A stretch of 64,000 nucleotides of DNA from a virus, in the UHGV virus genome UHGV-0332176. One strand, given 5' to 3'. The notes below the pieces were generated by a model. The model was given only the letters and a program-made list of their open reading frames with translations, made no database searches and was not told the DNA's origin. Below, one piece after another: positions 15,400 through 46,864 of the stretch. Made by a program: the position numbers and the translations under genes. Position 1 is the stretch's first letter, and each line of letters begins with the position of its first letter.

Positions 15400-15412
15400 T
15401 GACCGCTTTTTT
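15388..15412. terminator. bidirectional terminator between convergent genes
   Basis: aagcggtc-ttaat-gaccgctt hairpin plus T6. Confidence 0.55.
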
Positions 15413-20803: not shown

Positions 20804-20811
20804 GGTAAAAA

Positions 20812-22518
20812 ATGGCAAATAAAACAAGTTATACAAATGTAGAGGGTTTAGTACCATTAAAAAATAATGGAAATAAATTTATTGGTATTAAAAATAATCA
20901 ATTACAAGCAGTATCTAATGAAAATTTATTAGATTCATTTAATATTAGTCAAAGAATACCATTTAGTGTTAATACTTGTTCAGATACTTTTATTAAGCCA
21001 TATGGTATTATTTCAAGTGGAAATGAAATTATATTATATCCAATGAAATTAATGGATTCAAGTAATACTATTGAAATAAATTTAACTGAAACATTAACTA
21101 AAAATATGAATTTATTTGCTGAAGGAAATAATCAGGGTTGTAAAGATAATTCTTATACAAAATGGCAACAACCTGTTATGACTGGTGAATATACTCCTTA
21201 TGGTCATTGTTTTCAATCACAAGGAACAATGACATCAGCTCCTTATATGGCAATGGATGGTGTTATTGATTCTCCATTAAATCAATGGTTAGCATCTACA
21301 ATTAATTCAACTTGGATATATACAAATACTAATCCAATTATTGTTGAATCACTTTATTTACATAATACTAATACAGCTAATAGAAGTAGAGATTTAGATA
21401 TTTTTATTAATGAAGATATTAATCAAAAAATTTTAGAAAATTATGTATGTTCGCCAGATGTATATGATATTAATTATATTAATATTCCTGCTGAAAATAG
21501 AATTGAATCATCATCTATTGGTATTTTAGTTAAAACTGCTTTTGCAGGAACAACTGTTGGATTTACAGAAATTGAAATAAATGCTAAAACTAAATATGTT
21601 CAACCTAATACATACTACAATGTATTTTTAATTACAAATAAAGAACAAACTAAAGTTGATTTTATAATTACAACTGATAAACAACCAATTATGCCTTCTG
21701 GATTTGAAGATGGTTATTATGCTTATGTTAAACAAGTACAAACAGATTTAATTTATAATATTTTTGAAACATCTTTAGGTGATGGTTTAGTGTTTGATAT
21801 GAGTCGTCCATTAACTATTACAGATTGTAATAATCAAACAACCATTATTACAAATGAATTACCTATAATAAAATTTAATGATACTGATTTAACTAAGGAA
21901 ATTATTCATACTGTATATTGTAAAAGTGATGGAACAATATATGATAGAACCGCTAAATTTTATAAAAATTTAGATTCGTTACCAACTGCGTATCAAATTG
22001 GAGAAGTAGCTTTCATTACTGGTAATTATGCTAATGGAAAAGCATTTGAATGGGATGGAGAAAATTGGATAGACTTTAATGATGTTCCTATTTGTGAAGT
22101 ATATCGTTATAATAATAAATCCATAGCAATTAATCAATTTCCTTGCAATAACAATTTTTATATTAAATCTCTACAAAATGATGTATGGATTCACGAAGAA
22201 ACAATGAAATTAGGATTTAATTATATAATTCCTCATAATTTAAATATTGAAGATATTTCAGATTATAAATTTGATTGTCAAATGTTATGTATTCAAGCTG
22301 ATGCAGGTTATTTACCAGGTGAATTAGCAATGTGTCCAACATTAGTTTTTAATGCAACAAATAACATTCGTAATATTCAGCCATATTTAACAAAAAATTA
22401 CATTGGTTTAATGTCAGGAACAGTTAATACAGGTTTTTGGGTTGTAAACAAAACAAGAGGATATGCTTGGGATGCTAATCTTTCTTGTTGGAAACTCATA
22501 TTTAGAATTTGGAAATAG
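20812..22518 (+). CDS. receptor-binding protein with a discoidin-like domain
   Basis: MAMDGVIDSPLNQWLAST..STWIYTNTNPIIVESLYLHNTN. C-terminal GYLPGELAMCP...CWKLIFRIWK. Confidence 0.7.
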   Translation: MANKTSYTNVEGLVPLKNNGNKFIGIKNNQLQAVSNENLLDSFNISQRIPFSVNTCSDTFIKPYGIISSGNEIILYPMKLMDSSNTIEINLTETLTKNMNLFAEGNNQGCKDNSYTKWQQPVMTGEYTPYGHCFQSQGTMTSAPYMAMDGVIDSPLNQWLASTINSTWIYTNTNPIIVESLYLHNTNTANRSRDLDIFINEDINQKILENYVCSPDVYDINYINIPAENRIESSSIGILVKTAFAGTTVGFTEIEINAKTKYVQPNTYYNVFLITNKEQTKVDFIITTDKQPIMPSGFEDGYYAYVKQVQTDLIYNIFETSLGDGLVFDMSRPLTITDCNNQTTIITNELPIIKFNDTDLTKEIIHTVYCKSDGTIYDRTAKFYKNLDSLPTAYQIGEVAFITGNYANGKAFEWDGENWIDFNDVPICEVYRYNNKSIAINQFPCNNNFYIKSLQNDVWIHEETMKLGFNYIIPHNLNIEDISDYKFDCQMLCIQADAGYLPGELAMCPTLVFNATNNIRNIQPYLTKNYIGLMSGTVNTGFWVVNKTRGYAWDANLSCWKLIFRIWK

Positions 22519-22553
22519 TATAAATATTTTATATAAGAAATGAAGGATTATGT

Positions 22554-23279
22554 ATGTCTACAATTTATGATATAGCTGGTACAAGTGCAAATTCATTTAA
22601 TTTAAATGGTAAGGTAACATTATTACAAGGTGATGAAGCTCCACAAATATATCAAGGAGTTGATGGTGATGTTTATTTTAGAACAAATGGTTTAATTTAT
22701 TCTAAACAAAATGGAACTTGGTTAAACTTATCATCTGCATCATTACCAGATGCTGCAACAGGTGATGGTAAATTTATTGTTTCTAATGGACAAAACTATG
22801 AATTTTATGATTTATCTGTTAATGATATTGCATTTTTATCAAGAAATAATGTATTTACAGGTAGCAATACATTTAATAATGTTGTTCAAGGTACAGCATT
22901 CAGAACTTATTGGGGTGACTTAGCTGAAATTTATGAAACTGATAAGGAATATCCAAAAGGTACATTGGTTAAATTTGGTGGTGATAAAGAAATTACAATA
23001 GCCGATACACAAGTTAATGCAGTAATTTCTTCAGAACCTGGTTTAATTTTAAATACTCAAAATAAAACAGGTCAAGCTATTGCATTAATTGGTAGAGTTC
23101 CTGTTAGAGTTATTGGTAATTGTAAAAAATTTGATTATTTAACATTATCAGATGTTCCAGGTGTTGCAACTGTATTAGAAGATAATGAATTTCCATTAAA
23201 TGTTATTGCAAGAGCATTAGAAAATAAAGATTATGTTGAAGAAGGTCTAGTTCTTTGTGTTATAAAATTTGATTTATAA
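22554..23279 (+). CDS. hypothetical structural protein
   Basis: ORF within the structural block, followed by a terminator. Confidence 0.5.
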   Translation: MSTIYDIAGTSANSFNLNGKVTLLQGDEAPQIYQGVDGDVYFRTNGLIYSKQNGTWLNLSSASLPDAATGDGKFIVSNGQNYEFYDLSVNDIAFLSRNNVFTGSNTFNNVVQGTAFRTYWGDLAEIYETDKEYPKGTLVKFGGDKEITIADTQVNAVISSEPGLILNTQNKTGQAIALIGRVPVRVIGNCKKFDYLTLSDVPGVATVLEDNEFPLNVIARALENKDYVEEGLVLCVIKFDL

Positions 23280-23305
23280 TTTTTTATTTTTGCTTTCTTT
23301 TATTA

Positions 23306-23336
23306 AATCCTCTATATTTGTATAGGGGATTTTTTA
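23306..23336 (+). terminator. rho-independent terminator
   Basis: aatcctctata-tttg-tataggggatt hairpin plus T-run. Confidence 0.55.
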
Positions 23337-23368
23337 TAATAAATAATTAATATAATTGGAGAAAATAT

Positions 23369-24136
23369 ATGGTAAAATTTTCATATAAATTAGTAAAAAC
23401 AGATAAAATAGTTCGTAAAGATGAAAATAAACATAAAATAATTGAATTAATTCCTCATAATGATATTACAAAAGAGGAATTAATAGATTTATTAAAATAT
23501 GTTTATGATTTAGAAAATAATGAAAAATTTAAAGATAATATTTTATTAAAATTAAAAGGATTAAATACTGACTTAATTGAAGAATCTATTAAATATTCTT
23601 TGACAAGAGAAGATTTAAAAGACCCTTTAATGATTTTAAATATTATTAATTTAATTAAAATTTATAATAATTTAAATGATAATTTTTTCCAAGATGAAAA
23701 TATCTATATTGATTCAAAAAAGCAATTATTAGATATTAAAAAACATATTAAACAAGAATTAAAAGATTTTATTAAAAAATTAAGTATCTACTTTATTTCA
23801 ATAATTAAATCTTATAATAAAGTAACTTATACCTCTCTTGATACTTATACTGTTTTACCAAATATTTATAAAACAATATTTTTATCATCTGACTTTTTAA
23901 CATTAGCAGGTATTTTATCAGTATCAGATTCATTTAATACAGAAGAATGTGTTACTGTTAAGGATTCATTTACATATGTTTCTTCATTATTAACAAAAAA
24001 TTTATTAAGTATTAATTTAATGAATAACTTTTTTAAAGATTTTGATGAAAAAATAAAAAAGGATAAAAATGACAATAGCAACCAATCAAGTAATTGTTTA
24101 TCAAGATTTATTAGATTTTGTTTTAACAAATCTTAA
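23369..24136 (+). CDS. hypothetical K/N/I-rich protein
   Basis: 255-aa ORF with GGAGAAAA ribosome-binding site. Confidence 0.45.
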   Translation: MVKFSYKLVKTDKIVRKDENKHKIIELIPHNDITKEELIDLLKYVYDLENNEKFKDNILLKLKGLNTDLIEESIKYSLTREDLKDPLMILNIINLIKIYNNLNDNFFQDENIYIDSKKQLLDIKKHIKQELKDFIKKLSIYFISIIKSYNKVTYTSLDTYTVLPNIYKTIFLSSDFLTLAGILSVSDSFNTEECVTVKDSFTYVSSLLTKNLLSINLMNNFFKDFDEKIKKDKNDNSNQSSNCLSRFIRFCFNKS

Positions 24137-24689
24137 AGCAAAATGCTCAAATATTGATACTTTTGCAAGTAATGTTCCTGTTTCTTTACGAAATGGTTCA
24201 AGTTATGTATTAGCTTCTACTCCTGGCGGAAATGGAACAGTAACAGCAACTGGTACAGTTAATGATAGTTTATTAGTAACTGTTCCTACTGCAACAGTTG
24301 AACAACAATTGAATGATTTTTTAATTGCCAGAGGAATTAAAAACAAACCTGATAGAGTAGTTGCTTTTAAAGATATTATGAATTTTTATAATAATATTGC
24401 GTCATTTTTGGCTACAAAATTAATGTTTGTAAGTAATAGTTTTGGTAGTGGAACATTTATTTTTTATAATAGTGCAAATAATTCATATCCATCTGTAAAT
24501 TTAAATGTATCAGATATTAATTTTACTAATCCTGAAATTAAAACAAGCATTACAGATTTAATGAATGCAATTAATAATGTTTCAAATACTCACTATGCAG
24601 CAACAACTATTGTTTATACGTGTTCATCAAGTAGTTCATCAAGTTGTTCTTCATCAAGTTCAATGTTTATTGCATATATGGATATATAA
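24069..24689 (+). CDS. Ser/Thr/Asn-rich protein with a C-terminal poly-Ser/Cys tail (TCSSSSSSSCSSSSS); paralogue of the next gene
   Basis: AAGGAT ribosome-binding site; shared block ..FL..I....K.......F..F.N.I.SF..TKL.F.... Confidence 0.45.
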   Translation: MTIATNQVIVYQDLLDFVLTNLKAKCSNIDTFASNVPVSLRNGSSYVLASTPGGNGTVTATGTVNDSLLVTVPTATVEQQLNDFLIARGIKNKPDRVVAFKDIMNFYNNIASFLATKLMFVSNSFGSGTFIFYNSANNSYPSVNLNVSDINFTNPEIKTSITDLMNAINNVSNTHYAATTIVYTCSSSSSSSCSSSSSMFIAYMDI

Positions 24690-25240
24690 TGGCTTTACAA
24701 AATATTACATACAACGAAATAGTTGAAACAGTTAAAAATTATATTAAAACAAATTGTATGAATATTGCAAATTTTGGAGCAATTCCAGCTGCCTTTAAAG
24801 CAGGTTATACATTATCAGGAAATATTAGTTCTTCAGGTGATAGATATACTTCTAAATATGTTGTAACAATTACAAGAGCTGTTACACAGGTTGCATCAAG
24901 TGTTGTTGATACAGATATGAATAATTTTTTAACAACAATTAATGTAACTAATAAATTAAATAATAATATTCCTGCAAGTGAATTTATTAATTTTATTAAT
25001 GATATAGTTAGTTTTTGTTCAACAAAATTATGCTTTGCAACTAGTCAATATGATGGAAATAGATATTTAATTTATTATACACCTAATACTTCATATTCTT
25101 CAATTGTTTCAATTAATACAAATGAAAGTAATAAAATTGTTCAAGCAAATGATGTTAATTCAATATTAAATATGCTTTTGAATGTTATTAAACAAAATAT
25201 CAGAAATGTCCCTTGTACATATAATATTGCATTATCATAA
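24689..25240 (+). CDS. Ser/Thr/Asn-rich protein, paralogue of 24069-24689
   Basis: Start taken at MALQNITYNE, ATG 24689. Confidence 0.45.
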   Translation: MALQNITYNEIVETVKNYIKTNCMNIANFGAIPAAFKAGYTLSGNISSSGDRYTSKYVVTITRAVTQVASSVVDTDMNNFLTTINVTNKLNNNIPASEFINFINDIVSFCSTKLCFATSQYDGNRYLIYYTPNTSYSSIVSINTNESNKIVQANDVNSILNMLLNVIKQNIRNVPCTYNIALS

Positions 25241-25288
25241 TTTAATTGATATACTTTTCTTTAATAAAAATATTGAAGGAAACATATT

Positions 25289-26155
25289 ATGAATTGTAAA
25301 CCTGTTTATGAATTTTTATTATGGGATAATTGTAATAATCATTGTAAATTTTGCTGGCAACGAGAAAATCCTCGCTTATTTAATAAATCTCAACGAGAAA
25401 TCATTTTAAATAATGTAATTAAATTTATTAATAGTAATAAATTTAAAAAAGATAGTCATATTCTCATTGTTGGCGGAGAAATTTTTGATAATCCATCTGA
25501 TTTTGAATTATTAGATACATTTTTTTGCCAAATACTTGAATTTATGATTAATGGAACAATTGATTTATTATATATCAATACAAATCTAATATATAAAGAT
25601 TTAACAGGTATTATTCGTTTAATTAAACGAATAGAAACATTAAATTTATTTGATAGATTAAGATTTACAACATCCTTTGATATAGAAGGAAGATTTAAAT
25701 CAGAAGATGATAAACAATTAATGTTATCTAATTTAAAACTTTTAACAGGAATTTATGATAAATTGCAAGTTGTTACAAATATCATTTTAACTAAACCTAT
25801 GTGTCAAGCAATTATTAATGATAAATTTAGTGTTGGACAATTTATGAAAAAATATAAATGCTGGGTTAATCTAATTCCATATATTGTTTTAGATAATAAT
25901 TTAACAGCGGATAGAGAAGAAATATTTTCAACATTACAAAAAGTTGATGAAGAAAATAATGGTTATTTACAAAAATATATTACAAATTTAGATTTAGCAC
26001 AAGATAAGTTATTATATATGTATAAAGATAATAAATTTCAATTTTGTAGTTGTGAAAATTCTGAATGTGGACATTCAATAAACTTTAAGAAATATTCAGA
26101 TACTAATGATTGTTATATTTGTGATTTAAAGGAATTATTCAATGGAAAAATTTAA
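25289..26155 (+). CDS. radical SAM family protein (paralogue 1) with CNNHCKFC, GGE motif and a C-terminal CGH...CxxC cluster
   Basis: CxxxCxxC at residues 15-22, IVGGEIF, C-terminal CGHSINFKKYSDTNDCYICD. Confidence 0.65.
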   Translation: MNCKPVYEFLLWDNCNNHCKFCWQRENPRLFNKSQREIILNNVIKFINSNKFKKDSHILIVGGEIFDNPSDFELLDTFFCQILEFMINGTIDLLYINTNLIYKDLTGIIRLIKRIETLNLFDRLRFTTSFDIEGRFKSEDDKQLMLSNLKLLTGIYDKLQVVTNIILTKPMCQAIINDKFSVGQFMKKYKCWVNLIPYIVLDNNLTADREEIFSTLQKVDEENNGYLQKYITNLDLAQDKLLYMYKDNKFQFCSCENSECGHSINFKKYSDTNDCYICDLKELFNGKI

Positions 26156-27062
26156 AAATAAAAATCGTTTTATTCAATTTGAATTATGGAAAGACTGTAG
26201 TTTAGGTTGTAAATTTTGTTTTAATAAAAAACAAAAAGATGTTAATAAAATTGAATCTTTACAATTTGTTTTAAATAAATTAGATGATTCCGAAATGTTA
26301 GATTATAATGAAATTGGTTTTATTGGCGGAGAATTTTTTAATAATGAATTAAAAGATAATGATGTTAAACAACTTTTTTATAATTTATTTAAAAAACTTT
26401 CTACTATGCATTTTGAAAAAATATATATTACAGGAGCATTAATGTATGATATGCAACAATATCTTATCCCTTTTTTAAATTATTTAAAAAAATTAAAAAT
26501 ATTAGAAAAAGTTTTATTATGCACATCATATGATTTAAAATATCGTTTTTATACAAAAGAAAGAGAAGATTTATGGAAAAATAATATGTTAACACTTCAT
26601 AAATTATATCCAGAATTAAAATTACATACTGAAACAGTTATTACTCAATATTTTATTGATGCAGTTTTAAATGATGAATTTAGTATAACTGAATTTTGTA
26701 ATACATATCATACCAGATTAGATTATATTGAACCAACATCAGGATTATATTATAAAGATAAGCAAGAATGTATGAAAGATATTCCTGATTTTTTTCCAAC
26801 AAAAGATAGTTTTATTGATTTTATGATGAAAACAGGTGTAGAATCAAATGAAATAGATTTAAAAACATTTTTATCTATGGAAATACGTTCAAATAAATTA
26901 TATTATTTAGATGAAGGTATAAGATGTGTTTCAGCAAATAGACGTGAAAATGATGGAATGATTGTTCCAAAAGATAGTTCTATTAAATATGAAATTGGGT
27001 TTGCAGATTCTGATGATAATATGCCAGAATTAGTTAGAGATTTTTGTTTAACAGTAGGATAA
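26142..27062 (+). CDS. radical SAM family protein (paralogue 2, divergent, lacks the C-terminal Cys motif)
   Basis: FELWKDCSLGCKFCFN and GFIGGEFF. Confidence 0.6.
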   Translation: MEKFKNKNRFIQFELWKDCSLGCKFCFNKKQKDVNKIESLQFVLNKLDDSEMLDYNEIGFIGGEFFNNELKDNDVKQLFYNLFKKLSTMHFEKIYITGALMYDMQQYLIPFLNYLKKLKILEKVLLCTSYDLKYRFYTKEREDLWKNNMLTLHKLYPELKLHTETVITQYFIDAVLNDEFSITEFCNTYHTRLDYIEPTSGLYYKDKQECMKDIPDFFPTKDSFIDFMMKTGVESNEIDLKTFLSMEIRSNKLYYLDEGIRCVSANRRENDGMIVPKDSSIKYEIGFADSDDNMPELVRDFCLTVG

Positions 27063-27066
27063 TATT

Positions 27067-28056
27067 ATGAATTTAATAGATTGGTGGATTAATTTAAATC
27101 CTTTAAATTATAAAGAAGAATTAGCATTATTATCTACACGAAATGATGAATATACTGGTAATGAAACAGATTTACCAAGTAATGAGGAATTTTTTAATCG
27201 TTTGCCAATGTGTAATTTATCTAAACCATATAGTGTACGTGTTGATAAATGTGCAACAACTTTAATTCAAGGTTTATTTGATACTTATATTGATGATGAT
27301 ACACTTGTTATATATACTGAAAATGAACATTATAAAATTAAAGAAATTCTTAATACGTTTAAAAATAGATTAGTATTAAGTTATGATGATATTCTTAAAT
27401 TAAATATGTCTAAAATAGCTTCAAGTCTATCTAAATTTAAAAAAGTATTTGTATACATTATTGGGACACAATTATCTAGTGGAGAAATTACACCTCAATA
27501 TTTTTTTATTAAATTAAAAGAATTATTAAATACTTATAAATGCCATTATAAATTAGTTTTAGATGACGTACACGGAATGTATTTTGTTCCTCGTGATTAT
27601 AGTTTATTTGATTATATTATTGGTACAACTCACGCTTTAATTCCAACATATCATATGGGAATTTTAATTGGTAAAGAAAATATGAATAAGTTTGGTAAAA
27701 ATGGTTATCATTGGATAATTGATTATTTTGAAGCATTAGATGTATTATTAAGTAGAAAAGAAAAAATTTATCAATTTAATTATGTATTAGAGCAAAGTTT
27801 AGCTGATATTTTAGCAAAAGGGAAATGTCATTTATTAACTCAAAAAGCTCCTCATTTATTTGCTATTAAAACAGACCAAATAAACTTTAATCAAGAATTT
27901 AAAAATGAAATGGATGAATATGGAATACGTTTAGAAGGAGTAAATAATGAATTAAAATATATTCTTCTTAGAGTATCACAATTTATTATTAATCCTCAAA
28001 ATTTAAAAGAAGGTATAGAAACTTTAAAAATAGCATTAGATTATATGTATGAATAG
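27067..28056 (+). CDS. hypothetical protein embedded in the radical-SAM operon
   Basis: 329-aa ORF with no CxxxCxxC motif. Confidence 0.5.
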   Translation: MNLIDWWINLNPLNYKEELALLSTRNDEYTGNETDLPSNEEFFNRLPMCNLSKPYSVRVDKCATTLIQGLFDTYIDDDTLVIYTENEHYKIKEILNTFKNRLVLSYDDILKLNMSKIASSLSKFKKVFVYIIGTQLSSGEITPQYFFIKLKELLNTYKCHYKLVLDDVHGMYFVPRDYSLFDYIIGTTHALIPTYHMGILIGKENMNKFGKNGYHWIIDYFEALDVLLSRKEKIYQFNYVLEQSLADILAKGKCHLLTQKAPHLFAIKTDQINFNQEFKNEMDEYGIRLEGVNNELKYILLRVSQFIINPQNLKEGIETLKIALDYMYE

Positions 28057-28065
28057 GAAAAACAA

Positions 28066-29001
28066 ATGGATAATAAGCAAAATATGGTTCAATTTGGTGT
28101 ATGGAGTAATTGTTGTAATGCGTGCGATTTTTGTTTACGTGAAGAAAGAATTCCATATAGTAAAGAAAAGCAATTATATTATTTAGATATGATTAAAAAA
28201 AATATTGAATATATTGATTGGAAAGATAAATTTTCTTATGGTATCTCATTATTAGGCGGTGAATTATATTATATTACTGATAAAGATTTACAAAAATCAT
28301 TTTTAGAATTGATTGATGTTATTATTGAAAAAATTTTAAAAGTTTCTCCAAATCCAGAATGCAAATATTCAACAGTAACTAATGGATTATACGACCCAAC
28401 ATTTTTATATCAAGTAATTGATAAAATTGTTAAAGAAGTAGGATTAAAAGCAATTGATGTTAATTTTTCATATGATTTAAAATATAGATTTAAATCAGAA
28501 GAAGATAGATTAAAAGTTCTAAAAAATATTAATGATTTTCATAAAAGATATAATTATAATGTTGGTGTACAAATGATTATGACACAATATGTAATTAATG
28601 AATGGAAAGCTGGCAGATTTGATGTTAATAAATTTATGGAAGAAGAAATTCCTGGTAATTATTTAACATTTTTATATCCACATCCTATTAGAACAGGTAA
28701 AAAATTAGACGATTTTAATTTTAACCGAACAGACTTTTTAGATTTTATTCAATATTTAAAAGATGAATGTTATAATGTATATTTGTCATTTTTACATTCA
28801 ACTAAAAATTCAGGAACATTTAAATATACTGGTTTACAAAATCGTGTACATCCTTCAGTAGATGCTCAACCAGTTTTATCAGATGGAAAAGAAATAATTA
28901 ATGAAAATTGCGGGCACTCAATTATATATAAATGTTATAGTGATTGTGATGATTGTGTATTATGTGATTTAAAAGAATTTGATGAGGAAGTATATATATG
29001 A
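28066..29001 (+). CDS. radical SAM family protein (paralogue 3)
   Basis: WSNCCNACDFC, LLGGELY, C-terminal CGHSIIYKCYSDCDDCVLCDLKEF. Confidence 0.65.
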   Translation: MDNKQNMVQFGVWSNCCNACDFCLREERIPYSKEKQLYYLDMIKKNIEYIDWKDKFSYGISLLGGELYYITDKDLQKSFLELIDVIIEKILKVSPNPECKYSTVTNGLYDPTFLYQVIDKIVKEVGLKAIDVNFSYDLKYRFKSEEDRLKVLKNINDFHKRYNYNVGVQMIMTQYVINEWKAGRFDVNKFMEEEIPGNYLTFLYPHPIRTGKKLDDFNFNRTDFLDFIQYLKDECYNVYLSFLHSTKNSGTFKYTGLQNRVHPSVDAQPVLSDGKEIINENCGHSIIYKCYSDCDDCVLCDLKEFDEEVYI

Positions 29002-29984
29002 AAAAACAAATGCAATTTGAATTATGGGATGAATGTAATTCTAAATGTACTTTTTGTCATTTATGTAATAAAAATAATATAACACCAAATGAAACAAAAC
29101 TTAATATGATTCAAGATACTTTAGATAAAATATCTAATTTATCTATATATGATGAGTATGATACAATAGGTTTTATTGGTGGAGAATTTTTTCAAGGTCA
29201 ACTTAATACTCCTGAAATTAAATCTAAATTTATGGAATTAATGGATAAATCAAGATGGTTATTAGATAATGATTATATTGAGAATGTATGGATTAATATA
29301 ACTTTAACAATTGGAAACCAAAATGACTTATATGACGTTTTAAAGCGTTTTGAAGGGCATAAAGGAAATTTATGGTTACTTACTTCATATGATACGTTAG
29401 GACGCTTCCATAGCCAAAAAATGCTGGATAATTGGGATTATCATATGAAAAACATTCATAAGTTATATCCAGAAATTAAATTTAATATTACAAGTATATT
29501 AACAGGTGACTTTATTGAAAAGTATTTAAATAATGAAATAAATTTTACACAAATGATGGAAGAATATCATTGTTCATTATTTTTTAAAGTTCCTGCATTA
29601 CAAAAAGAATTCTATAAATCCAATAAAGAAATGAATAATGCCATTGGTCATTTTTTTCCAACAAGAGATTTATTTTTAGAATTTTTAACTACTTTTCGTC
29701 AAACAGAACATCCTGATTTATGGAATAAATTATTTAATATTGCATATCGGGCTGATACATTGTATTGTCAAGAGAATGGGGATGATATAGAAATTACTCG
29801 TAATAAAGATAATGATTATATGGAAATTATTATTGATAATACAACAAATAAACAACTAATTAGAGATAAAGAAAAACAAATGGATTATATTATGGATTGT
29901 GGACATTTAAGTACATATAATTCATATGTTGATGAAGATGGATGTGCAATTTGTGATAAATTAATGATAGAAGAATTAATATAA
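28998..29984 (+). CDS. radical SAM family protein (paralogue 4)
   Basis: FELWDECNSKCTFC, GFIGGEFFQGQLNTPEIKSKFMEL, C-terminal DCGHLSTYNSYVDEDGCAICDKLMIEEL. Confidence 0.65.
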   Translation: MKKQMQFELWDECNSKCTFCHLCNKNNITPNETKLNMIQDTLDKISNLSIYDEYDTIGFIGGEFFQGQLNTPEIKSKFMELMDKSRWLLDNDYIENVWINITLTIGNQNDLYDVLKRFEGHKGNLWLLTSYDTLGRFHSQKMLDNWDYHMKNIHKLYPEIKFNITSILTGDFIEKYLNNEINFTQMMEEYHCSLFFKVPALQKEFYKSNKEMNNAIGHFFPTRDLFLEFLTTFRQTEHPDLWNKLFNIAYRADTLYCQENGDDIEITRNKDNDYMEIIIDNTTNKQLIRDKEKQMDYIMDCGHLSTYNSYVDEDGCAICDKLMIEELI

Positions 29985-30003
29985 AAATTTTAAAGGATTA
30001 ATA

Positions 30004-30954
30004 ATGAGTAAACAATTACAATTTGAATTATGGCAAGAATGTAATTCTAAATGTAAATTTTGTTATTTAGGAAAAGAAAATTGTTATACGCCAAATGAAA
30101 TAAAATTACAATCATTACAAAATGCATTAGATAAAATATCAGATTTATCAATTTATAAAGAATATGATACATTATCATATTTAGGTGGAGAATTTTTTCA
30201 AGGTCAACTTAATACTCCTGAAATTAAATCTAAATTTATGGAATTAATGAAAAAAACAGCGTGGCTATATGAACATAACTACATTAAACACGTATGGATT
30301 TATGCTACTTTAACAATTGGTGACCAAAAAGATTTATATGAAACTTTAAATTTATTTAATAAAAAAGATGAATTATGGATTTTAACTTCATATGATACAA
30401 TTGGAAGATTTCATACACAAAAAATGTTAGATAATTGGGATTATCATATGAAAAACATTCATAATTTATATCCAGAAATTAAATTTAATATTACAACCAT
30501 ACTTTCTGAAGATTGTATAGACAAATATTTAAATGATAATTTATCATTTAAAAAAATGATGGAAGAATATCATTGTTCATTCTTTTTTAAACAATGCGGA
30601 AATGGACCATATTCAAAAGAAGAAATGAATACTATTCTTCCACATTTTTTTCCACCACGAGATAAATTTATAGATTTCCTACAAAAATTTCGTAATGAAG
30701 AAAACGATGAAATGTGGAATAAATTATTTAATATTCATTATAGAGCTGATAGTTTATATAGAAATTTTAATGATAAAAATCATCAAATGGAATTAAATGT
30801 ACGTCATAAGGATTCATTAAATGAAATTGAAAATAATAATAAAGATGAAATGGAAACAAATGATTGTGGACATTTAAAAGTTTATGCAGCTTATATAGAT
30901 TGTGATGATTGTGTATTATGTGATAAATTAATGATAGAAGAACTTTTAAAATAA
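30004..30954 (+). CDS. radical SAM family protein (paralogue 5)
   Basis: FELWQECNSKCKFC, YLGGEFFQGQLNTPEIKSKFMEL, C-terminal DCGHLKVYAAYIDCDDCVLCDKLMIEEL. Confidence 0.65.
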   Translation: MSKQLQFELWQECNSKCKFCYLGKENCYTPNEIKLQSLQNALDKISDLSIYKEYDTLSYLGGEFFQGQLNTPEIKSKFMELMKKTAWLYEHNYIKHVWIYATLTIGDQKDLYETLNLFNKKDELWILTSYDTIGRFHTQKMLDNWDYHMKNIHNLYPEIKFNITTILSEDCIDKYLNDNLSFKKMMEEYHCSFFFKQCGNGPYSKEEMNTILPHFFPPRDKFIDFLQKFRNEENDEMWNKLFNIHYRADSLYRNFNDKNHQMELNVRHKDSLNEIENNNKDEMETNDCGHLKVYAAYIDCDDCVLCDKLMIEELLK

Positions 30955-30964
30955 GGATTAATAA

Positions 30965-31441
30965 ATGATTACTATTGAAAATAATGATAAAGATATTACT
31001 ATTGAAAATGATAAAAATCAACCATATGTTAAAAAAATTATTTTAAATAAAGATTTAACAATTAAAGCTCAAACAAATACATCTTTTAATATTAATACAA
31101 TTTTTACTTTTTCAGATAATAATGATTTTGCATTTGTTGAAGGTGTTATTGTTGAAGCAAATGATTATTATATTGTTGGTGAAGTATATAGTTTAGACCG
31201 TGAAAATAATAAATTATCATTATTAATTGGGAATAATTCTAATAAATCTTATACAATTCCTGCTGGCACACATATTGGTAATATATATATTACATCAAAA
31301 AATTTGACAGGAAATGTTATTTATGATAATGGTAATTTAGCAGTTATTGATTATAATAATTTTTATAAAGTTGATAATACAACCTTAACTGAATATCCAG
31401 ATGGAAAAAAAGCTATTACTATTAACTTGGATAAAGAATAA
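30965..31441 (+). CDS. hypothetical protein in the radical-SAM operon
   Basis: 158-aa ORF with AAGGAT ribosome-binding site. Confidence 0.45.
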   Translation: MITIENNDKDITIENDKNQPYVKKIILNKDLTIKAQTNTSFNINTIFTFSDNNDFAFVEGVIVEANDYYIVGEVYSLDRENNKLSLLIGNNSNKSYTIPAGTHIGNIYITSKNLTGNVIYDNGNLAVIDYNNFYKVDNTTLTEYPDGKKAITINLDKE

Positions 31442-32397
31442 TGAGCTTACAAATACAATATGAATTATGGCGAGAGTGTAATTGTAACTGTACATATTGC
31501 ACTCTTGGTTTTGATAATCATAAAACCGAGAATAAATTAAAACTTCAATCAATGCAAACCGCTATTGATGAAATGAAAAACTTTGAACCAAATGAACATC
31601 AAACAGTAGGTTTTATTGGTGGAGAATTTTTTCAAGGTCAACTTAATACTCCTGAAATTAAATCCAAATTTATGGAATTAATTAAAGTAGCTAATGATTT
31701 ATTAAATAATCATATTGTTAAAGATTTATGGTTAAATGCTTCATTATTAATTGGTAATCAAAAAGATTTATATGAAGCTATTGATTTAATTGATGATAAA
31801 ACAAAATTATGGATTTTAACTTCATATGATAGTATTGGAAGATTTCATACTCCTAAAATGCTAGAAACTTGGCAATATCATATGAAAAATATTCATAATT
31901 TATATCCAGAAATTAAATTAAACACAACGAGCATATTAACAGGTGATTTTATTGAAAAATATTTAAATGATAATATTGATATTAAAGAATTTAAAGCAAC
32001 ATATCATACAAATTTATTTTTAAAAACAACTGTTAAACCAGGACATTTAAGTCATTTATCTAAACAAGAAATTAATGATAAAATTGGTAATTTCTTTCCT
32101 ACACAAGAAAGATTTCAAGAATTTTTGTTTACTTTTTATATGCGTGAAGGAGCAGAAGAATATCATAATTTATTCAGTAATGATTTAAGAGCAGATGAAG
32201 TTAGAAAAAATTATAATATTGATACAAAACGAAATATTAAATTTATTCGTGATAAACAAACATTAGAAGAAACTATTGATTTAATTGATGAACATATAGA
32301 TAATTTATCGTGCGGACATTCAACAATATATCAATGTTATGTTGATTCTGATGACTGTTGCATTTGTAATAAACAAGAAATAGGAGAATTATTTTGA
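31441..32397 (+). CDS. radical SAM family protein (paralogue 6)
   Basis: YELWRECNCNCTYC, GFIGGEFFQGQLNTPEIKSKFMEL, C-terminal SCGHSTIYQCYVDSDDCCICNKQEIGEL. Confidence 0.65.
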   Translation: MSLQIQYELWRECNCNCTYCTLGFDNHKTENKLKLQSMQTAIDEMKNFEPNEHQTVGFIGGEFFQGQLNTPEIKSKFMELIKVANDLLNNHIVKDLWLNASLLIGNQKDLYEAIDLIDDKTKLWILTSYDSIGRFHTPKMLETWQYHMKNIHNLYPEIKLNTTSILTGDFIEKYLNDNIDIKEFKATYHTNLFLKTTVKPGHLSHLSKQEINDKIGNFFPTQERFQEFLFTFYMREGAEEYHNLFSNDLRADEVRKNYNIDTKRNIKFIRDKQTLEETIDLIDEHIDNLSCGHSTIYQCYVDSDDCCICNKQEIGELF

Positions 32398-33017
32398 ACA
32401 AAGGTGATTATTATAAAGTAGTTGATAAAGCAACCAAAGAAATAATTTGTGCTGGACCTATTTCATTTATAAAAAATACTGCAAATATGTCAATTTTAAT
32501 AAGTTTTGATAATAAATATTTCTTCAAATTTGAAGGCACAATGAAGTATAAAGTGATTGAAAATTCTAAGCATTTAGAAATACCTTTAAAATTAGAATTT
32601 TTAAATAGATATGCTGTTTGCTTATATAAAGATTATTTTAAATATCCACACTATGATGTATATAGAGAATTTGATATAACTGAATTAGATAAACCTGTTA
32701 TCAAATTAGTTAAAGCATTAAATAAATTTGAAGGAATTGAAACCACAGGAAGTTGTTGCGGACACGATGAAAATATTTTATGGATTGATATAATGTTTTA
32801 TACAATACCAGCTTTAAATTTATTATTAGATATTTTAAATACAAATGAATATAACGATAAATTTATGTTGTGTAATTATTATACCCAGAAAAATGATTCA
32901 AATGAATCTGTTATGTTACGTTTAAGAACTTTTGCTATTGGAGAAAAAGCATATCAATATACAGATGATTTAGCTGATAAATTAGAAGAAATATATTCAT
33001 TATTATATAATTTATAA
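32394..33017 (+). CDS. hypothetical protein, last gene of the operon, with a TGSCCGHDE motif
   Basis: 207-aa ORF overlapping the upstream stop. Confidence 0.45.
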   Translation: MNKGDYYKVVDKATKEIICAGPISFIKNTANMSILISFDNKYFFKFEGTMKYKVIENSKHLEIPLKLEFLNRYAVCLYKDYFKYPHYDVYREFDITELDKPVIKLVKALNKFEGIETTGSCCGHDENILWIDIMFYTIPALNLLLDILNTNEYNDKFMLCNYYTQKNDSNESVMLRLRTFAIGEKAYQYTDDLADKLEEIYSLLYNL

Positions 33018-33242
33018 ATGATATTTACCTTTTAAATATTTAATAACTGATTCATTTTCTCGTTCAGTTAATTCACTATTATATAAAATAACTTCAGCAA
33101 TTTCACAAGCTAAAAATGGACTAAATGAAACAGTTCCATTTTCACTTACTGCCCAATTTATATATTCATTAGGTTTTAACCAATAACCACCTCTAAATAC
33201 TTTTGCAGTATTTGTTGCAGGGTCACCAAAATCCCTCTTTAA
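33012..33242 (-). pseudogene. 76-codon open frame lacking any start codon, in frame immediately after the TAA stop of the 33243-34547 fibre gene
   Basis: Hand translation after the stop gives LKRDFGDPATNTAKVFRGGYWLKPNEYINWAVSENGTVSFSPFLACEIAEVILYNSELTERENESVIKYLKGKYHL*. It has no ATG, GTG or TTG and is in the same frame as the upstream gene. Confidence 0.3.
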
Positions 33243-34547
33243 TTATTCACCTTGAGCAAAAATTAATCTAAAAGCAATAGTTTGTCCACCAAAAGTGTAA
33301 CCAATTATAAATTGTTGTCCTTTTCTAACAGGAAAATAAAGAACATCATTTACTCCACTTGTTGACCATTTTATAGCTATTGTATTTTCATCAACAGTTG
33401 TTGATGGTAAATTAGTATCATATGCAACAAGATATTGATTTGCAGCTGTTGCTTGTTTAACTAATTGAATATAACCATTAGCAACTGCTGTATAAACTGT
33501 GCCAGAAATACCTAACTCTAAATTAATATATTTTTTAGAAGGCATTGCTTGTTGAGCTACCCAACTAGAATTATTTTTATCTACTAATGATATAGGATGT
33601 TTAGGATTAAATAATACAATTTTACCATTTTCAATACGAGCAGAACCTACCCAAATATCATTTGAAATTCCTAAACCTGCATAATTATAATTATTAATTT
33701 CATCAAAGAAAATTAAATCAATTGTTGGTTTATCAAATGCTTGACTATTAATGGCTATTTTATTAGCATATAAATCTAATATAACATTTGCAGTTATATT
33801 TGGACAAGTATATGTTAAAATATTTTCAATTGATATAATATTATTTTTTTTAATTCCTGTTAAAGAATCATTACCATTTGGAGATAAACCTTTTATTCCT
33901 GGTAAAGCAAATATTGTTGAACCTACAAAGCCAAATCCATTAAATACTTGGTCAATAGAAACCCAAGAAGAAACTGTACTTGTTCCTAACGCAATTGGTA
34001 ATGAACATTCTTGCCAACCATCAGTAGTATCTAAATAGCATTTTTTATCAGTTGTATTATAATAAATTTTAAATGAAGCAGTTGAAGTAGGTAATTCAGA
34101 TACTGTTTCACCTGGTACAAAACCTGTTAATAAAACATCAAAATCTTTTGATAAAGCAATTAAAACTTGTCCATCATAATTAGCATTAACACTTGATATA
34201 TCTGTTGTTGTAGTTTTTAATACTCCATTACCATTATAAACTTTACTACCTGCTTTTAACGTAATTATTCCATTATTAATTTCTAACTTAATATCTTGTG
34301 GAATTTCTGTAATACAGTTAGTAATTTGATTATAACCTACTTGTTCATTACGCCAGCTTAAATTTGTACCATCATTGCTTAATACTTGTTGATTAGTATC
34401 AGTATTAACTTCTGGTATTGTTCCACCATCAGGAGTAATATAAAATTCATTTTCAACTAATTGACCAGCTTCTTTTAATTCATTATATTTAGCTGTACTC
34501 ATTTTATTAAATTTTAATTGAGGTATATCTACACTTGTTTGAGCCAT
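33243..34547 (-). CDS. tail fibre protein, paralogue of 34911-36176
   Basis: A roughly 130-aa block (ITNC.T.IPQDIKLE.NNG.ITLKAGSKVYNGNG..KTTTTDI...) is nearly identical to the neighbouring fibre. The C-terminal module is shared with 15411. Confidence 0.7.
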   Translation of the reverse strand: MAQTSVDIPQLKFNKMSTAKYNELKEAGQLVENEFYITPDGGTIPEVNTDTNQQVLSNDGTNLSWRNEQVGYNQITNCITEIPQDIKLEINNGIITLKAGSKVYNGNGVLKTTTTDISSVNANYDGQVLIALSKDFDVLLTGFVPGETVSELPTSTASFKIYYNTTDKKCYLDTTDGWQECSLPIALGTSTVSSWVSIDQVFNGFGFVGSTIFALPGIKGLSPNGNDSLTGIKKNNIISIENILTYTCPNITANVILDLYANKIAINSQAFDKPTIDLIFFDEINNYNYAGLGISNDIWVGSARIENGKIVLFNPKHPISLVDKNNSSWVAQQAMPSKKYINLELGISGTVYTAVANGYIQLVKQATAANQYLVAYDTNLPSTTVDENTIAIKWSTSGVNDVLYFPVRKGQQFIIGYTFGGQTIAFRLIFAQGE

Positions 34548-34611: not shown

Positions 34612-34911
34612 TTATTCTTTTGGATATTTTTCTTTAATTGATTTAATTAATGTTTGCCAGTTATTTGTTCCATCTTCTAAATCGTGATATATCATATCTA
34701 ACTGTTCAGTTAATGGTGGATATTCTTTTATTCTATTATTAATAGCAACAGCATTATGTGATTCAGATTCTTTAATATATTCTCCATTAACTAAAATATA
34801 TTTTTCATTTGTTTTCACTATTTTATCAAATTCCATAAGAGGAATAGATTCAATTTCTTTCTTTGTATTTTTAACTACAATAATCTTGTTATTTTGATAA
34901 CCTAACCACAT
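34612..34911 (-). CDS. small protein downstream of the fibre gene, possibly a fibre assembly or accessory factor
   Basis: 99-aa ORF; position only. Confidence 0.4.
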   Translation of the reverse strand: MWLGYQNNKIIVVKNTKKEIESIPLMEFDKIVKTNEKYILVNGEYIKESESHNAVAINNRIKEYPPLTEQLDMIYHDLEDGTNNWQTLIKSIKEKYPKE

Positions 34912-36176
34912 TATATTTCCCCTTTTGCATAGATAAATTTAAAACTAATTAAATTTGTAAATTCAGTATCAAACAATATTTGACAAATTTCACCTTTTAA
35001 AACAGGTATAATTGTTCTTAAATATTTGTCTGCACTTCTTGATGCATAACAATAACCATAATTTAAACCACTTCTTATAATAGCTATATCAACCCAGTTT
35101 GGCCCTTGCCCATCTATACTGAAATAACCATTTGCTGGAGCAATATAAGTTGCTCCTGATGCACCTAAAGTTAATGAAACATATTTACTACCTGGCATAA
35201 CTTGTTGTGTAATAAATGTAGTATCATTTTTATCAAATAATTGATATGCATTATTAAAACTAAATGTAGTAATTTTTCCAGAAGCATCAGTTAAAAATGT
35301 TCCAATTGGACATACTACCCAATCATTTAACCATCCATTTGAAATATCATTTAAAACATATTTCCATTTATTTTCATTTGGAGAATACCAAATAGAATAT
35401 GTAGATAATGTTGGTGCATTATTTTGATAATAAACTTTTGATGTTTCTAAAAACTCTAATTGTCTTTCATCATCTGAAACTCTAGCAAATAATGTATATG
35501 ATGTATTTGGAGCTAAAGATATTGTCCAATAAGTTAAAGTAGGTAAAATTTTTACAATATTATTTTGACTTCCATCATCATTGTTACCATTTGGAAATAT
35601 ATAAGTATTTCCACCATTTTTAATTATTGTATTTCCAATAAAACCAAATCCGTTAAATACTTGGTCAATAGATGTCCAAGATGTTGTAGTAGATGTTCCA
35701 ATAGCAAATGGAAAAGAACATTCTTGCCAACCATCAATTGTATCCAAATAACATTTTTTATCAGTTGTATTAAAATAAATTTTAAATGTTGCAGTTGATT
35801 CGGGTAATTCAGATACAGTTTCACCTGTTAAAAATCCAATTAATAATACATCATAATCTTTAGAAAGTGCTAACATAACTTGACCATCATAATTTGCATT
35901 TTCACTTGTAATATCTGTTGTGGTAGTTTTCATAATACCATTACCATTATAAACTTTACTACCTGCTTTAAGTGTAATTGTACCATTATTTAATTCAAGT
36001 TTAATATCTTGAGGTATTTTTGTTAAACAGTTTGTAATTTGACCATAAGTCCAATATGGTTTAGAACCATTATTACTTAACATCATTCCTGATGTTTCAT
36101 CATTCATTAATGGCATTTGAACACCATTTAACATAATTTTTTGACTAAGTTCATTGTTACCTAAATATAATGTCAT
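34911..36176 (-). CDS. tail fibre protein, paralogue of 33243-34547
   Basis: Shared internal block and C-terminal module. Confidence 0.7.
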   Translation of the reverse strand: MTLYLGNNELSQKIMLNGVQMPLMNDETSGMMLSNNGSKPYWTYGQITNCLTKIPQDIKLELNNGTITLKAGSKVYNGNGIMKTTTTDITSENANYDGQVMLALSKDYDVLLIGFLTGETVSELPESTATFKIYFNTTDKKCYLDTIDGWQECSFPFAIGTSTTTSWTSIDQVFNGFGFIGNTIIKNGGNTYIFPNGNNDDGSQNNIVKILPTLTYWTISLAPNTSYTLFARVSDDERQLEFLETSKVYYQNNAPTLSTYSIWYSPNENKWKYVLNDISNGWLNDWVVCPIGTFLTDASGKITTFSFNNAYQLFDKNDTTFITQQVMPGSKYVSLTLGASGATYIAPANGYFSIDGQGPNWVDIAIIRSGLNYGYCYASRSADKYLRTIIPVLKGEICQILFDTEFTNLISFKFIYAKGEI

Positions 36177-40283: not shown

Positions 40284-41302
40284 TAACCAGCAGCAATTGT
40301 CATTCCAGTACGAGTTACTGCTGTTGCTCCTCTAACAACAGATAAAGGTATTTCATTAAATGCTACTGGAAAAACAGGATTTACTAAATTCCCCCATTGT
40401 TCTTTCCAACCATCTGAATAAATTCTATAACCTGTTGTACCTGATTGTTCTTTAATTATATATCTGCTTTGATATGATGAAGCTAAATCTTCCATTGGAT
40501 AATAACGAATAATATTATCAGCATTATCAGAAGCAGTTATAAAATCACCGATTTTTTTACATTTTAATTTATTATGAAATATATTACCAAATTCATTTCC
40601 ATAAGTAATAAAAAATTCTTTATTTTCATTTAACCAAATTTCATATTTCATTAAAGGATAATGAGTTGACCACGCTGTTGTTAAATCAATTATTGTATCA
40701 TTTTCAAACTCAATAAATTTTTTATCTAAAATTTTTTTTAAATGATAACCTGTTTCAATTGGTATATAATATAATAATGTATCACCTTCATTCATTATTG
40801 GTTTATCAGCATAACTAGAAATAATCATATCAAATTCATTCATATAATTTTTAATATGACAAAGATAATGTTTTAATGTTGTTCCAGATGAAGAATCAAT
40901 TCCACCTGCTCCATTTGTATTATATAATAAAGTTGAATATCTTGTTTCATAATTTCCAATATTTAAATCCATTGGTTGAAATTGATATGTAGATGTAATA
41001 TCCCATAATGGATATTTTAAATGAAAATCTTGCTTTTTTGTTTGATTATTATGAAGAAAATAGTCACATATTTTGTCTAAATATGTATAACCTTTTTTAA
41101 TAATTAATTGATTTCCAGAAATTTTTAATGTTAATCCTTTTGAAGAATTTGACAAATTATATTTTTCTGAAATATTAATTGGATTAATAAAAGTTAAATC
41201 GGTTGCATTTTCATTAACTTTTAAAATTCCATTTTCATTAGTTGGAATTGAGCGTTCAAATCTATTAATTTTTACTTTATTAGTCATATTAATATCCTTC
41301 AA
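40262..41302 (-). CDS. tail fibre protein, same C-terminal module
   Basis: C-terminal GYRIYSDGWKEQWGNLVNPVFPVAFNEIP... Confidence 0.7.
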   Translation of the reverse strand: MKDINMTNKVKINRFERSIPTNENGILKVNENATDLTFINPINISEKYNLSNSSKGLTLKISGNQLIIKKGYTYLDKICDYFLHNNQTKKQDFHLKYPLWDITSTYQFQPMDLNIGNYETRYSTLLYNTNGAGGIDSSSGTTLKHYLCHIKNYMNEFDMIISSYADKPIMNEGDTLLYYIPIETGYHLKKILDKKFIEFENDTIIDLTTAWSTHYPLMKYEIWLNENKEFFITYGNEFGNIFHNKLKCKKIGDFITASDNADNIIRYYPMEDLASSYQSRYIIKEQSGTTGYRIYSDGWKEQWGNLVNPVFPVAFNEIPLSVVRGATAVTRTGMTIAAGYWFAKGY

Positions 41303-42473: not shown

Positions 42474-42481
42474 AAAAAACC

Positions 42482-42949
42482 TTATAATTTTGCTAATTCA
42501 TTTCGTTTATGTTGATATGCTTTTTCATAAATTTCTGCTAAAAATTTTGTTAAATCTGTTAATTCTTTTTTTGTCATTTTTTTACTATTTTCTATTGTTC
42601 CACTAACATCCCAAATAGTTAATGTCATATCATCATCTAAATATTTTTGTAATAAAGTATAATATTGTTGAGAATATTCTGGTTCATAATACAATCCATT
42701 AGTATATTTAACAGGTGTTGTAATTGCAAATTGAAACCAATCTTCAATTTCTTGAATTTTCTTATTTGTTTCTTCATCTAAATTAATATTTGTATATGGA
42801 TAACCATCTTCAGTTTCTTGAAGAATATAACCTTTACTCATATCTTCACAAATTTTCTTATGTTGTTCTTCAGTAATTTCAACAGCACCATCAGGAATAT
42901 ATGTATTAATTCCTTCAAAATAAAAACCTTTTTTATAAAATATTCTCAT
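42482..42949 (-). CDS. hypothetical protein between fibre genes, possibly a chaperone or assembly factor
   Basis: 155-aa ORF. Confidence 0.45.
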   Translation of the reverse strand: MRIFYKKGFYFEGINTYIPDGAVEITEEQHKKICEDMSKGYILQETEDGYPYTNINLDEETNKKIQEIEDWFQFAITTPVKYTNGLYYEPEYSQQYYTLLQKYLDDDMTLTIWDVSGTIENSKKMTKKELTDLTKFLAEIYEKAYQHKRNELAKL

Positions 42950-42950
42950 A

Positions 42951-46767: not shown

Positions 46768-46774
46768 AAAATTA

Positions 46775-46803: not shown

Positions 46804-46864
46804 TAAAATAATTTAGGACATAAATACAGTTATAAGCAATTCACAAATTTAATAAAGGATTATA

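Follow-up and report, generated by a model that had tools for sequence, protein, structure and literature searches.

Radical S-adenosyl-L-methionine (rSAM) enzymes that mature peptides and proteins, such as anSME/AtsB, SkfB, CteA-SCIFF, PapB, YydG/EpeE, SuiB and ChlB, have a core marked by a CX3CX2C motif and a GGE motif. The substrates of anSME are precisely Ser and Cys side chains, and in the SCIFF/CteA system the enzyme is co-encoded with a protein bearing a Cys/Ser-rich C-terminal segment. Here we describe a gene cassette in the virus genome UHGV-0332176 (positions 23369-33017 of a 64,000-nt stretch, hereafter the window; G+C ~25%) that has both features: six rSAM proteins with the same core and, upstream of them, a protein termed F1-long, which ends in a tract of Ser and Cys followed by a conserved octapeptide. 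[quoted passage not shown] The cassette differs from the known rSAM RiPP maturases in having no SPASM motif and no recognized RiPP recognition element (RRE), and in bringing four rSAM types together. Its candidate substrate is a folded protein of ~200 residues with a homopolymer-like tract and a follower-like motif, rather than a short leader-core peptide.

Other described systems resemble the cassette in part. Ser-rich C-terminal segments of phage and secreted proteins are sites of post-translational decoration in mycobacteriophage virion glycosylation, serine-rich-repeat glycoproteins and siderophore-microcin C-termini; F1-long likewise has such a segment, and some relatives carry family-2 glycosyltransferase (GT2) genes within the cassette. 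However, those systems employ glycosyltransferases or MceIJ-type enzymes and admit Thr, Ala and Gly in their tracts, whereas the cassette pairs an rSAM array with a tract that is 99.5% Ser/Cys and a fixed hydrophobic octapeptide. Compared with viperin, MoaA, BlsE and DesII, the cassette rSAMs score far below the viperin and MoaA model cut-offs, and most cassettes have no sugar genes.

Arrays of rSAM genes are also found in the Campylobacter phages CP220 and CPt10 (Firehammervirus; large, virulent), which have 11-12 such genes, with one block of five (CPT_0080-0087). An earlier note on this DNA considered six rSAM genes in a row unusual for a phage; these arrays provide a precedent. The CP220 block (70690-79273 of the record, 20690-29273 of our extract L059) includes an amidinotransferase and is followed by two GT-A-like glycosyltransferases, a layout loosely like that of one cassette variant (L052). 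By Foldseek the CP220/CPt10 rSAMs are distant structural relatives (TM-score ~0.4-0.5), and the block rSAMs give no match to the family hidden Markov model (HMM) at E <= 0.01. CP220 was rejected as the same system, as no F1/F2 homolog and no Ser/Cys-tailed open reading frame (ORF) occurred in the 100 kb scanned (the other 77 kb lay outside the scan). Many rSAMs in one phage therefore have precedent, while the cassette itself is distinct from that of CP220.

F1-long Ends in a Ser/Cys Tract and a Conserved Octapeptide

F1-long (24069-24689, plus strand; 206 aa) comprises a globular domain of ~184 residues, a Ser/Cys-only tract and a C-terminal octapeptide. Its tail in the window reads CSSSSSSSCSSSSS-MFIAYMDI-stop: the 14-residue tract occupies 24621-24662 (+), with Ser codons TCA, TCT and AGT and the Cys codon TGT, and the octapeptide with its stop codon occupies 24663-24689 (+), conforming to the family consensus Φ-F-I-A-Y-M-x-[I/L]. 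The commonest Ser codon of the tract, UCA, is the one read by the tRNA-Ser(tga) of the window. F1-short (24689-25240, +; 183 aa) is a paralog of the globular domain (~180 aa in common, 29% identity), and its ATG shares one base with the stop codon of F1-long. The two proteins had both been credited with poly-Ser/Cys tails; this applies to the first, while the second starts at the ATG at 24689, has no tail and ends ...IRNVPCTYNIALS. Across cassettes F1-short is mostly present, and in some a second F1-long takes its place.

Querying exhaustively with only the globular part recovered an F1 family of 198 clusters at 50% identity. The 86 tailed representatives have tracts of 12-32 residues (median 21) that together contain 1495 Ser and 312 Cys, with 9 residues of other kinds; Ser and Cys thus make up 1807 of 1816 positions (99.5%), in proteins whose globular domains have diverged below 50% identity. 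The motif after the tract is exactly eight residues long in 52 of the 86. Cys positions within the tract are not conserved. Both TCN and AGY codons are used for Ser, and among the single-nucleotide neighbors of Ser codons the tract tolerates Cys alone. The mixing of the Ser codon families argues that selection acts on the protein, and to judge from its composition the F1-long tail is under strict chemical selection. The same two properties led us to reject a slippage-prone simple repeat as the origin of the tract, although its length still varies by a nine-codon unit: near-identical strains have 206-aa and 215-aa F1-long alleles that differ by a nine-residue indel (SSSSSSSSC), giving a 23-residue tract in the longer allele.

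The third protein of this part of the cassette, F2 (23369-24136, +; 255 aa), is a helical-looking, Lys/Asn-rich orphan with no recognizable domain. It adjoins F1-long at almost every locus in jackhmmer searches, and its NCBI name is "hypothetical protein". F1 and F2 have no PDB, Pfam or PHROG relatives. From sequence conservation, the octapeptide and F2 are candidate recognition elements. The F2 and F1-long genes overlap by 68 nt in the window (24069-24136) versus 0-20 nt in relatives, and the C-terminal extension of F2 seen here (…NCLSRFIRFCFNKS) may be strain-specific.

F1-long, F2 and the rSAM Array Co-occur across Divergent Loci

As the earlier note had proposed, we looked for co-occurrence in related phages, using 25 IMG/VR loci that had been picked solely by their rSAM patterns, with rSAM identities of 25-92%. 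F1-long, nearly always with F2, flanks the rSAM array in 22 of the 25; two of the exceptions are cut by contig ends and the third is a lone rSAM gene (L040). Loci from ENA and GTDB agree with this linkage, save one (L014). In the opposite direction, starting from F1, a remote F1-long representative (E 2e-6) lies in an F1-short/F1-long/F2/rSAM/rSAM block, and all five DNA-motif matches to ...FIAYMDI adjoin rSAM genes of the family. The suggestion that the upstream Ser-rich proteins might be substrates thus receives strong comparative support in the case of F1-long, which travels with the rSAM array across dozens of divergent loci. As in a RiPP system, a gene-encoded substrate candidate with a distinct core segment, the F1-long tract, is co-located with the enzymes.

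The arrangement of the cassette varies in ways that bear on its nature. Two IMG/VR genomes (L037, L050) contain two to three tandem F1-long/F1-short/F2/rSAM units, each whole and with its own tail protein, and in two other loci (L005, L038) the cassette is split into inverted halves. Its flanks differ: some phages have it beside tail-fibre-like genes, others beside SbcCD-like genes. The receptor-binding-protein setting noted previously is not conserved. Duplication, inversion and change of flanks argue for a functional module and not only for a gene order kept by descent.

In the window the cassette spans 23369-33017, with nine genes (25289-33017, +) forming the enzyme half and F2, F1-long and F1-short the other half. 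The operon had been taken to start at 25289; we place the beginning of the unit at 23369 because F2, F1-long and F1-short recur with the array, as judged by clustering of locus ORFs and iterative searches. The nine ORFs are closely packed, with neighbors overlapping by 1-14 nt or separated by 4-19 nt. A terminator-like hairpin with a T-run (23305-23332, +), in the gap between F2 and the upstream gene X0, is probably the upstream boundary of the transcription unit; it is the sole terminator-like site in 22400-33400, which is weak evidence as shuffled sequence yields ~1.5.

The phage, a jumbo phage of the gut, is common in metagenomes. One of its rSAM proteins, ORF6, has counterparts of 100% identity encoded on metagenomic contigs of ~286-293 kb, and other window proteins are found on >400 metagenomic contigs; the NCBI entries are only "MAG TPA ... 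Caudoviricetes sp.", mostly hypothetical. Among 50,697 GenBank phage records in INPHARED, nothing was found by megablast of the operon or by tblastn of ORF4, ORF6 and F1-long. The GTDB species representatives gave 13 matches, all on contigs of metagenome-assembled genomes filed under many unrelated taxa, several of them 245-283 kb long; these look like mis-binned phage, with no clearly bacterial home seen. NCBIfam, PADLOC, Pfam and PHROGs returned only sub-threshold or generic rSAM matches for the cassette, and literature searches on polyserine with radical SAM, on rSAMs of jumbo or gut phages and on "FIAYM" returned nothing relevant.

The rSAM Enzymes Comprise Four Types and No Characterized Family

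The six rSAM paralogs are ORF1 (25289-26155, +; 288 aa), ORF2 (26142-27062, +; 306 aa), ORF4 (28066-29001, +; 311 aa), ORF5 (28998-29984, +; 328 aa), ORF6 (30004-30954, +; 316 aa) and ORF8 (31441-32397, +; 318 aa). They can be aligned end to end, and all six have CX3CX2C near the N-terminus (residues 13-22 by their own numbering) and GGE ~40 residues further on; G62, G63 and E64 are invariant and match the "GGEvf" of YydG. Residues S129, D131, R135 and F136 form a family-specific invariant motif, S-x-D-x3-R-F. Five of the six, ORF1 and ORF4 included, end in C-G-H-x12-C-x2-C, which is absent from ORF2; this site offers three Cys and one His, a set of ligands compatible by sequence with either Zn or an Fe-S cluster. 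The packed array of nine plus-strand genes, its six small rSAM paralogs and the C-terminal Cys cluster in five of them had all been described before, and the ORF map, motifs, alignment and fold bear this description out.

The family is divergent: Pfam PF04055 scores 14-28 bits, below its gathering cut-off of 29.5, and the Fer4_12 and Radical_SAM Pfam matches are real and mostly fall under the gathering score. Four paralogs out of six have a match to PHROG 1802 ("radical SAM domain-containing protein"). When a profile of the six was compared with the PDB, the best match was the YydG/EpeE epimerase (E 5.8e-5), whose cluster and GGE motifs fall in register with those of the profile, followed by viperins (E 2e-4), which match over a region that includes the stretch past the cluster motif. 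The sub-threshold PF04055 score is compensated by the fold. Structures were predicted for ORF6, representing the rSAM family, and for ORF3; fold comparison of the former gave values of 14.9 for anSME, 14.3 for SkfB, 14.0 for BlsE, 13.8 for viperin, 13.5 for ChlB, 13.1 for both SuiB and MoaA, 12.3 for YydG and 12.1 for CteA. By motifs, alignment to the YydG core and fold, the six proteins are genuine rSAM enzymes, and their fold is certain. On the predicted model, they are equidistant between peptide-acting and nucleotide- or sugar-acting relatives.

The curated NCBIfam models reached no family, with scores of 9-23 bits against cut-offs of 126-650. The viperin equivalog NF038283 scored 18-23 bits (cut-off 180) over the N-terminal ~65 residues only, and the best PADLOC pVip match (1.7e-8) concerned one copy only. 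MoaA models scored 9-13 bits (cut-offs 231-325), and the proteins have no MoaA-type C-terminal [4Fe-4S] motif. Models of the SPASM-type maturases PapB, ScmF, HxsC and QhpD reached at best 12-21 bits (cut-offs 268-453); neither the SPASM motif, with 7-8 Cys for two auxiliary clusters, nor the twitch half-motif was found, as types T1, T4 and T6 have only C-x-H-x12-C-x2-C. We therefore rejected identity as viperin, MoaA, QueE, NrdG, PflA or a SPASM maturase, the curated models all falling far under their cut-offs. In agreement with the earlier note, which had not recognized the family, the rSAM enzymes fall into no characterized family, while their motifs align to the rSAM core of YydG.

Pairwise protein identity separates the paralogs into types, being 21-33% between types and 47-58% among ORF5, ORF6 and ORF8. 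Best-hit typing across 32 loci found T1 (ORF1) in 27, T2 (ORF2) in 25, T4 (ORF4) in 31 and T6 (ORF5, ORF6 and ORF8, copies 1 to 3) in 31, and many loci have exactly one of each. The absence of the C-terminal Cys/His cluster from ORF2 is typical of its type, as only three of 36 T2 proteins have it. The window's six copies are the ancestral quartet T1, T2, T4 and T6 with T6 triplicated, so the "six different paralogs" seen earlier are indeed six copies, belonging to four ancient types. A 66-nt block of ORF5 (29178-29243, +) is identical to 30184-30249 in ORF6, and the ORF8 copy (31618-31683) has two differences; a segment that had been thought exact in three copies is thus exact in two. This block is the product of local gene conversion among the three T6 copies, because it is near-identical in genes that are 70-77% identical overall in DNA, and orthologs from other phages show at least 13 differences over its 66 positions. 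The most divergent cassettes contain double-length proteins matching the rSAM family (~690-740 aa), at 6855-9077 and 12095-14179 of L018 and in L052 (688 aa), which may be fusions.

ORF3 and the Variable Accessory Genes

The earlier note listed three partner genes of the rSAMs without recognizable function. One of them, ORF3 (27067-28056, +), has a recognizable pyridoxal 5'-phosphate (PLP) enzyme fold of fold type I, like that of class-V aminotransferases and NifS, complete with an Asp facing the pyridine nitrogen and a His stacked on the ring; Pfam gave no match for the window protein. For the residue assignment we rely on the match of folds, as alignment of the family profile to IscS by hhalign was weak (E 0.055). 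In this alignment H88 of ORF3 (N-E-H) pairs with H104 of IscS (T-E-H), which stacks on the PLP ring, and D166 with D180, which contacts the pyridine nitrogen. The T-T-H189-A190 segment pairs with S-G-H-K206, the latter being the Schiff-base Lys. The PLP-ring contacts H88, D166 and H189 are thus kept, while Ala replaces the Schiff-base Lys throughout the family (consensus T-A-H-A-L, YTAHAL). Furthermore, a 73-sequence ORF3 alignment has no invariant or near-invariant Cys that could act as the catalytic Cys of a desulfurase.

ORF3 differs in both respects from NifS, IscS, SufS, selenocysteine lyase and CqsA, which have the class-V fold. We rejected it as a working cysteine desulfurase, and it is not a classical aminotransferase either, because Lys is replaced by Ala and no Cys is conserved. 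A pyridoxamine 5'-phosphate (PMP)-type or non-covalent cofactor mode is possible; ORF3 may resemble ColD, which has a non-Lys residue at the same position and performs PMP chemistry on carbonyls. Several cassettes are missing ORF3. Iron-sulfur or sulfur logistics, in which ORF3 would be a NifS-like desulfurase loading the rSAM clusters and the Cys/Ser tail a carrier of sulfur or of clusters, would account for such a fold beside the array and is nevertheless very improbable given the family-wide loss of the Schiff-base Lys, the absence of a conserved catalytic Cys, the cassettes without ORF3 and the unconserved Cys positions of the tract.

The other two partners are ORF7 and ORF9. ORF7 (F8; 30965-31441, +; 158 aa) has a weak dUTPase-fold signature, its profile matching PDB dUTPases at E 0.024-0.6 on the motif "I.I.N.S....I..gt.IA.i" and Pfam Herpes_ORF11 at E 0.05; it is present in part of the cassettes only. 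ORF9 (F9; 32394-33017, +; 207 aa) is a variable protein with a TYW3/Taw3 signature (E-x-D...LN...TTGSCCGH) confined to 27-50 N-terminal residues (PDB 2drv, E 0.011). It does not match TYW3/Taw3 over its full length (14-18 bits against cut-offs of 27 in Pfam and 190-200 in NCBIfam), has only seven homolog clusters and occurs in a minority of surveyed cassettes. Relatives carry different enzymes in turn: NodU/CmcH carbamoyltransferases in six loci, a MiaB/RimO-like methylthiotransferase rSAM in six loci, and further rSAMs in some. Within one cassette (L052) are two GT2 glycosyltransferases and a DegT aminotransferase, and in another (L020) an NDP-sugar 4,6-dehydratase and a DegT protein lie among the rSAM genes. 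On one small contig (L026) the gene directly 5' of the F1 genes (498-1556) encodes a Cys-rich protein of 352 aa that matches Peptidase_U32 weakly (E 7e-4).

Proposed Maturation of F1-long and Competing Explanations

From the observed folds, tail signature and co-inheritance we infer that the Ser/Cys tail is the substrate of the array. In the pathway we envisage, the T1, T2, T4 and T6 enzymes would abstract hydrogen atoms from residues of the tract, while recognition or scaffolding would fall to the near-invariant Φ-F-I-A-Y-M-x-[I/L] terminus, to the globular domain of F1 and/or to F2. Plausible chemistry on the -CH2OH and -CH2SH groups would include anSME-like oxidation to formylglycine, thioether cross-links from Cys to carbon, and epimerization. 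ORF3, with its Lys-less PLP/PMP fold, might act on a carbonyl or small-molecule intermediate, because it could not use a peptide alpha-amine. ORF7 and ORF9 would be optional tailoring functions, as would the carbamoyltransferase, the GT2 and sugar enzymes and the MiaB/RimO-like rSAM of relatives. Three observations argue for this pathway: a constant core is combined with variable tailoring genes, as in RiPP gene clusters; the tract is chemically extremely selective; and the structural neighbors of the rSAMs oxidize, cross-link or epimerize peptide residues.

Several points weigh against it. All of the chemistry is inferred. The rSAMs have no SPASM motif and no RRE or PqqD match was recognized among the cassette proteins, both SPASM and RRE being common in peptide-modifying rSAM systems. 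At ~200 aa, F1-long is large for a RiPP precursor, and internal peptide residues are out of reach for a PLP-fold enzyme. The sugar-pathway genes and glycosyltransferases of some relatives suit a small-molecule pathway. In addition, the loci all belong to a single broad lineage of phages, and the linkage may thus in part reflect inherited gene order; L014 is an rSAM quartet without F1 within 2.8 kb upstream, and L040 a lone rSAM.

The main alternative retains F1-long as the final target: the rSAMs, ORF3 and the accessory proteins would make an unusual sugar, nucleoside or cofactor-like molecule, which is then attached to the Ser/Cys tract by O- or S-glycosylation or similar, on a virion-associated protein. 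BlsE, DesII, AprD4, viperin and MoaA are precedents for such rSAM chemistry, and the similarity of the cassette rSAMs to BlsE, viperin and MoaA supports it. So do the sugar genes among the rSAMs of L020 and L052, the NodU/CmcH carbamoyltransferases of six loci, the frequent position of the cassette 3' of a tail-fibre-like gene, and the role of Ser-rich tracts as classic O-glycosylation sites; the missing Schiff-base Lys of ORF3 also recalls PMP-dependent sugar enzymes such as ColD. Yet no glycosyltransferase or sugar-nucleotide enzyme is recognizable in the window cassette or in most others, and no nucleotidyltransferase was recognized among the scanned cassette genes. The constant parts are instead the rSAM quartet, F1-long and F2, and it would be odd for a glycosylation site to shut out Thr as strictly as the tract does, making this route somewhat unlikely in our estimate.

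A separation of the two halves, in which the rSAM array is a metabolic, nucleotide-modifying or anti-defence module (for example for hypermodification of DNA or RNA bases, or for a viperin-like nucleotide analog), the tail serves as a structural linker or as part of an adhesin, and the adjacency of F1 and F2 is inherited gene order, we consider unlikely. It would fit the weak N-terminal viperin matches (NCBIfam 18-23 bits; PADLOC pVip to 1.7e-8), the match of viperin structures to the rSAM profile (E 2e-4), the dUTPase-fold signal of ORF7, the TYW3 (tRNA-modification) motif of ORF9 and the deoxynucleoside monophosphate (dNMP) kinase encoded elsewhere in the window, as well as the many rSAMs of Campylobacter phages. 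However, F1-long and F2 are part of the unit that is duplicated, inverted and moved, viperin membership fails at 18-23 bits against 180, and the composition of the tail is far stricter than one expects of a flexible linker. Nucleotide hypermodification, one of the functions raised in the earlier note, finds no backing: no such enzymes were recognized in or beside any cassette examined, and the scanned cassette proteins match no hydroxymethylase, transglycosylase or aminoacyl- or phospho-transferase of base modification.

Returning to direct radical chemistry on F1-long, an extension that we offer tentatively, as possible rather than probable, is that the cassette represents a new class of phage protein maturation, in which a SPASM-less rSAM quartet turns a poly-Ser/Cys tract, marked by Φ-F-I-A-Y-M-x-[I/L], into a polymer-like post-translational structure. 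Candidate products would be poly-formylglycine or poly-amino side chains, a thioether ladder, or a framework to which carbamoyl or glycosyl groups are added; such a product could have a part in adhesion, in stabilizing the virion or in evading immunity in the gut. Should the tail be the substrate, it would constitute a new, virus-encoded precursor class, possibly with new radical chemistry on Ser and Cys. None of the core proteins, namely the F1 family with its Ser/Cys tail, F2 and the rSAM proteins of all four types, matches a curated family or a GenBank phage record, yet they come from a common phage. The tail gives enzymologists a defined peptide, would provide a candidate function for at least one multi-copy rSAM module of large phages, and its signature is a simple handle for finding further systems.

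Surroundings of the Cassette

The gene 5' of the cassette, X0 (22554-23279, +), resembles the C-terminal region of proteins named tail fibre or "preneck appendage", an assignment based on PHROG tail-fibre matches and the NCBI name; it lies directly 5' of the cassette in nine loci. Paralogous tail-fibre-like families surround the cassette (15411-16112, 33243-34547 and 34911-36176, all minus strand; also 18890-22518 and 41289-45707), and Collar, CBM_5_12 and F5/8 type C domains occur nearby, which fits a large modular receptor-binding region.

Elsewhere in the window, eight tRNA genes (933-6083, 53831-53906 and 63438-63524) cover Asn, Thr, Ser(tga), His, Leu (three), and Arg. A TROVE (Ro60-like) protein (2455-3744, +) adjoins the tRNA cluster; Rfam detected no Y-RNA at the gathering threshold. 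A permuted two-piece tmRNA (46469-46807, -) is supported by Rfam RF04321 (87.5 bits) and alpha_tmRNA (77.4 bits), with no ARAGORN call. Pfam matches of a matching contig place a DNMK (dNMP-kinase-like) gene at ~61382-62209 (-) and a NADAR-domain gene at 8939-9424 (+), both coordinates being approximate. The window also contains a complete diversity-generating retroelement, comprising a template repeat (TR, 47707-47821), a reverse transcriptase (47949-49298, +) and an Mtd-like target gene (49376-50455, -) with the variable repeat (VR, 49402-49516) at the 3' end of this Mtd-type-domain gene. The 115-nt TR and VR differ at 18 positions, all 18 of which are adenines in the TR.

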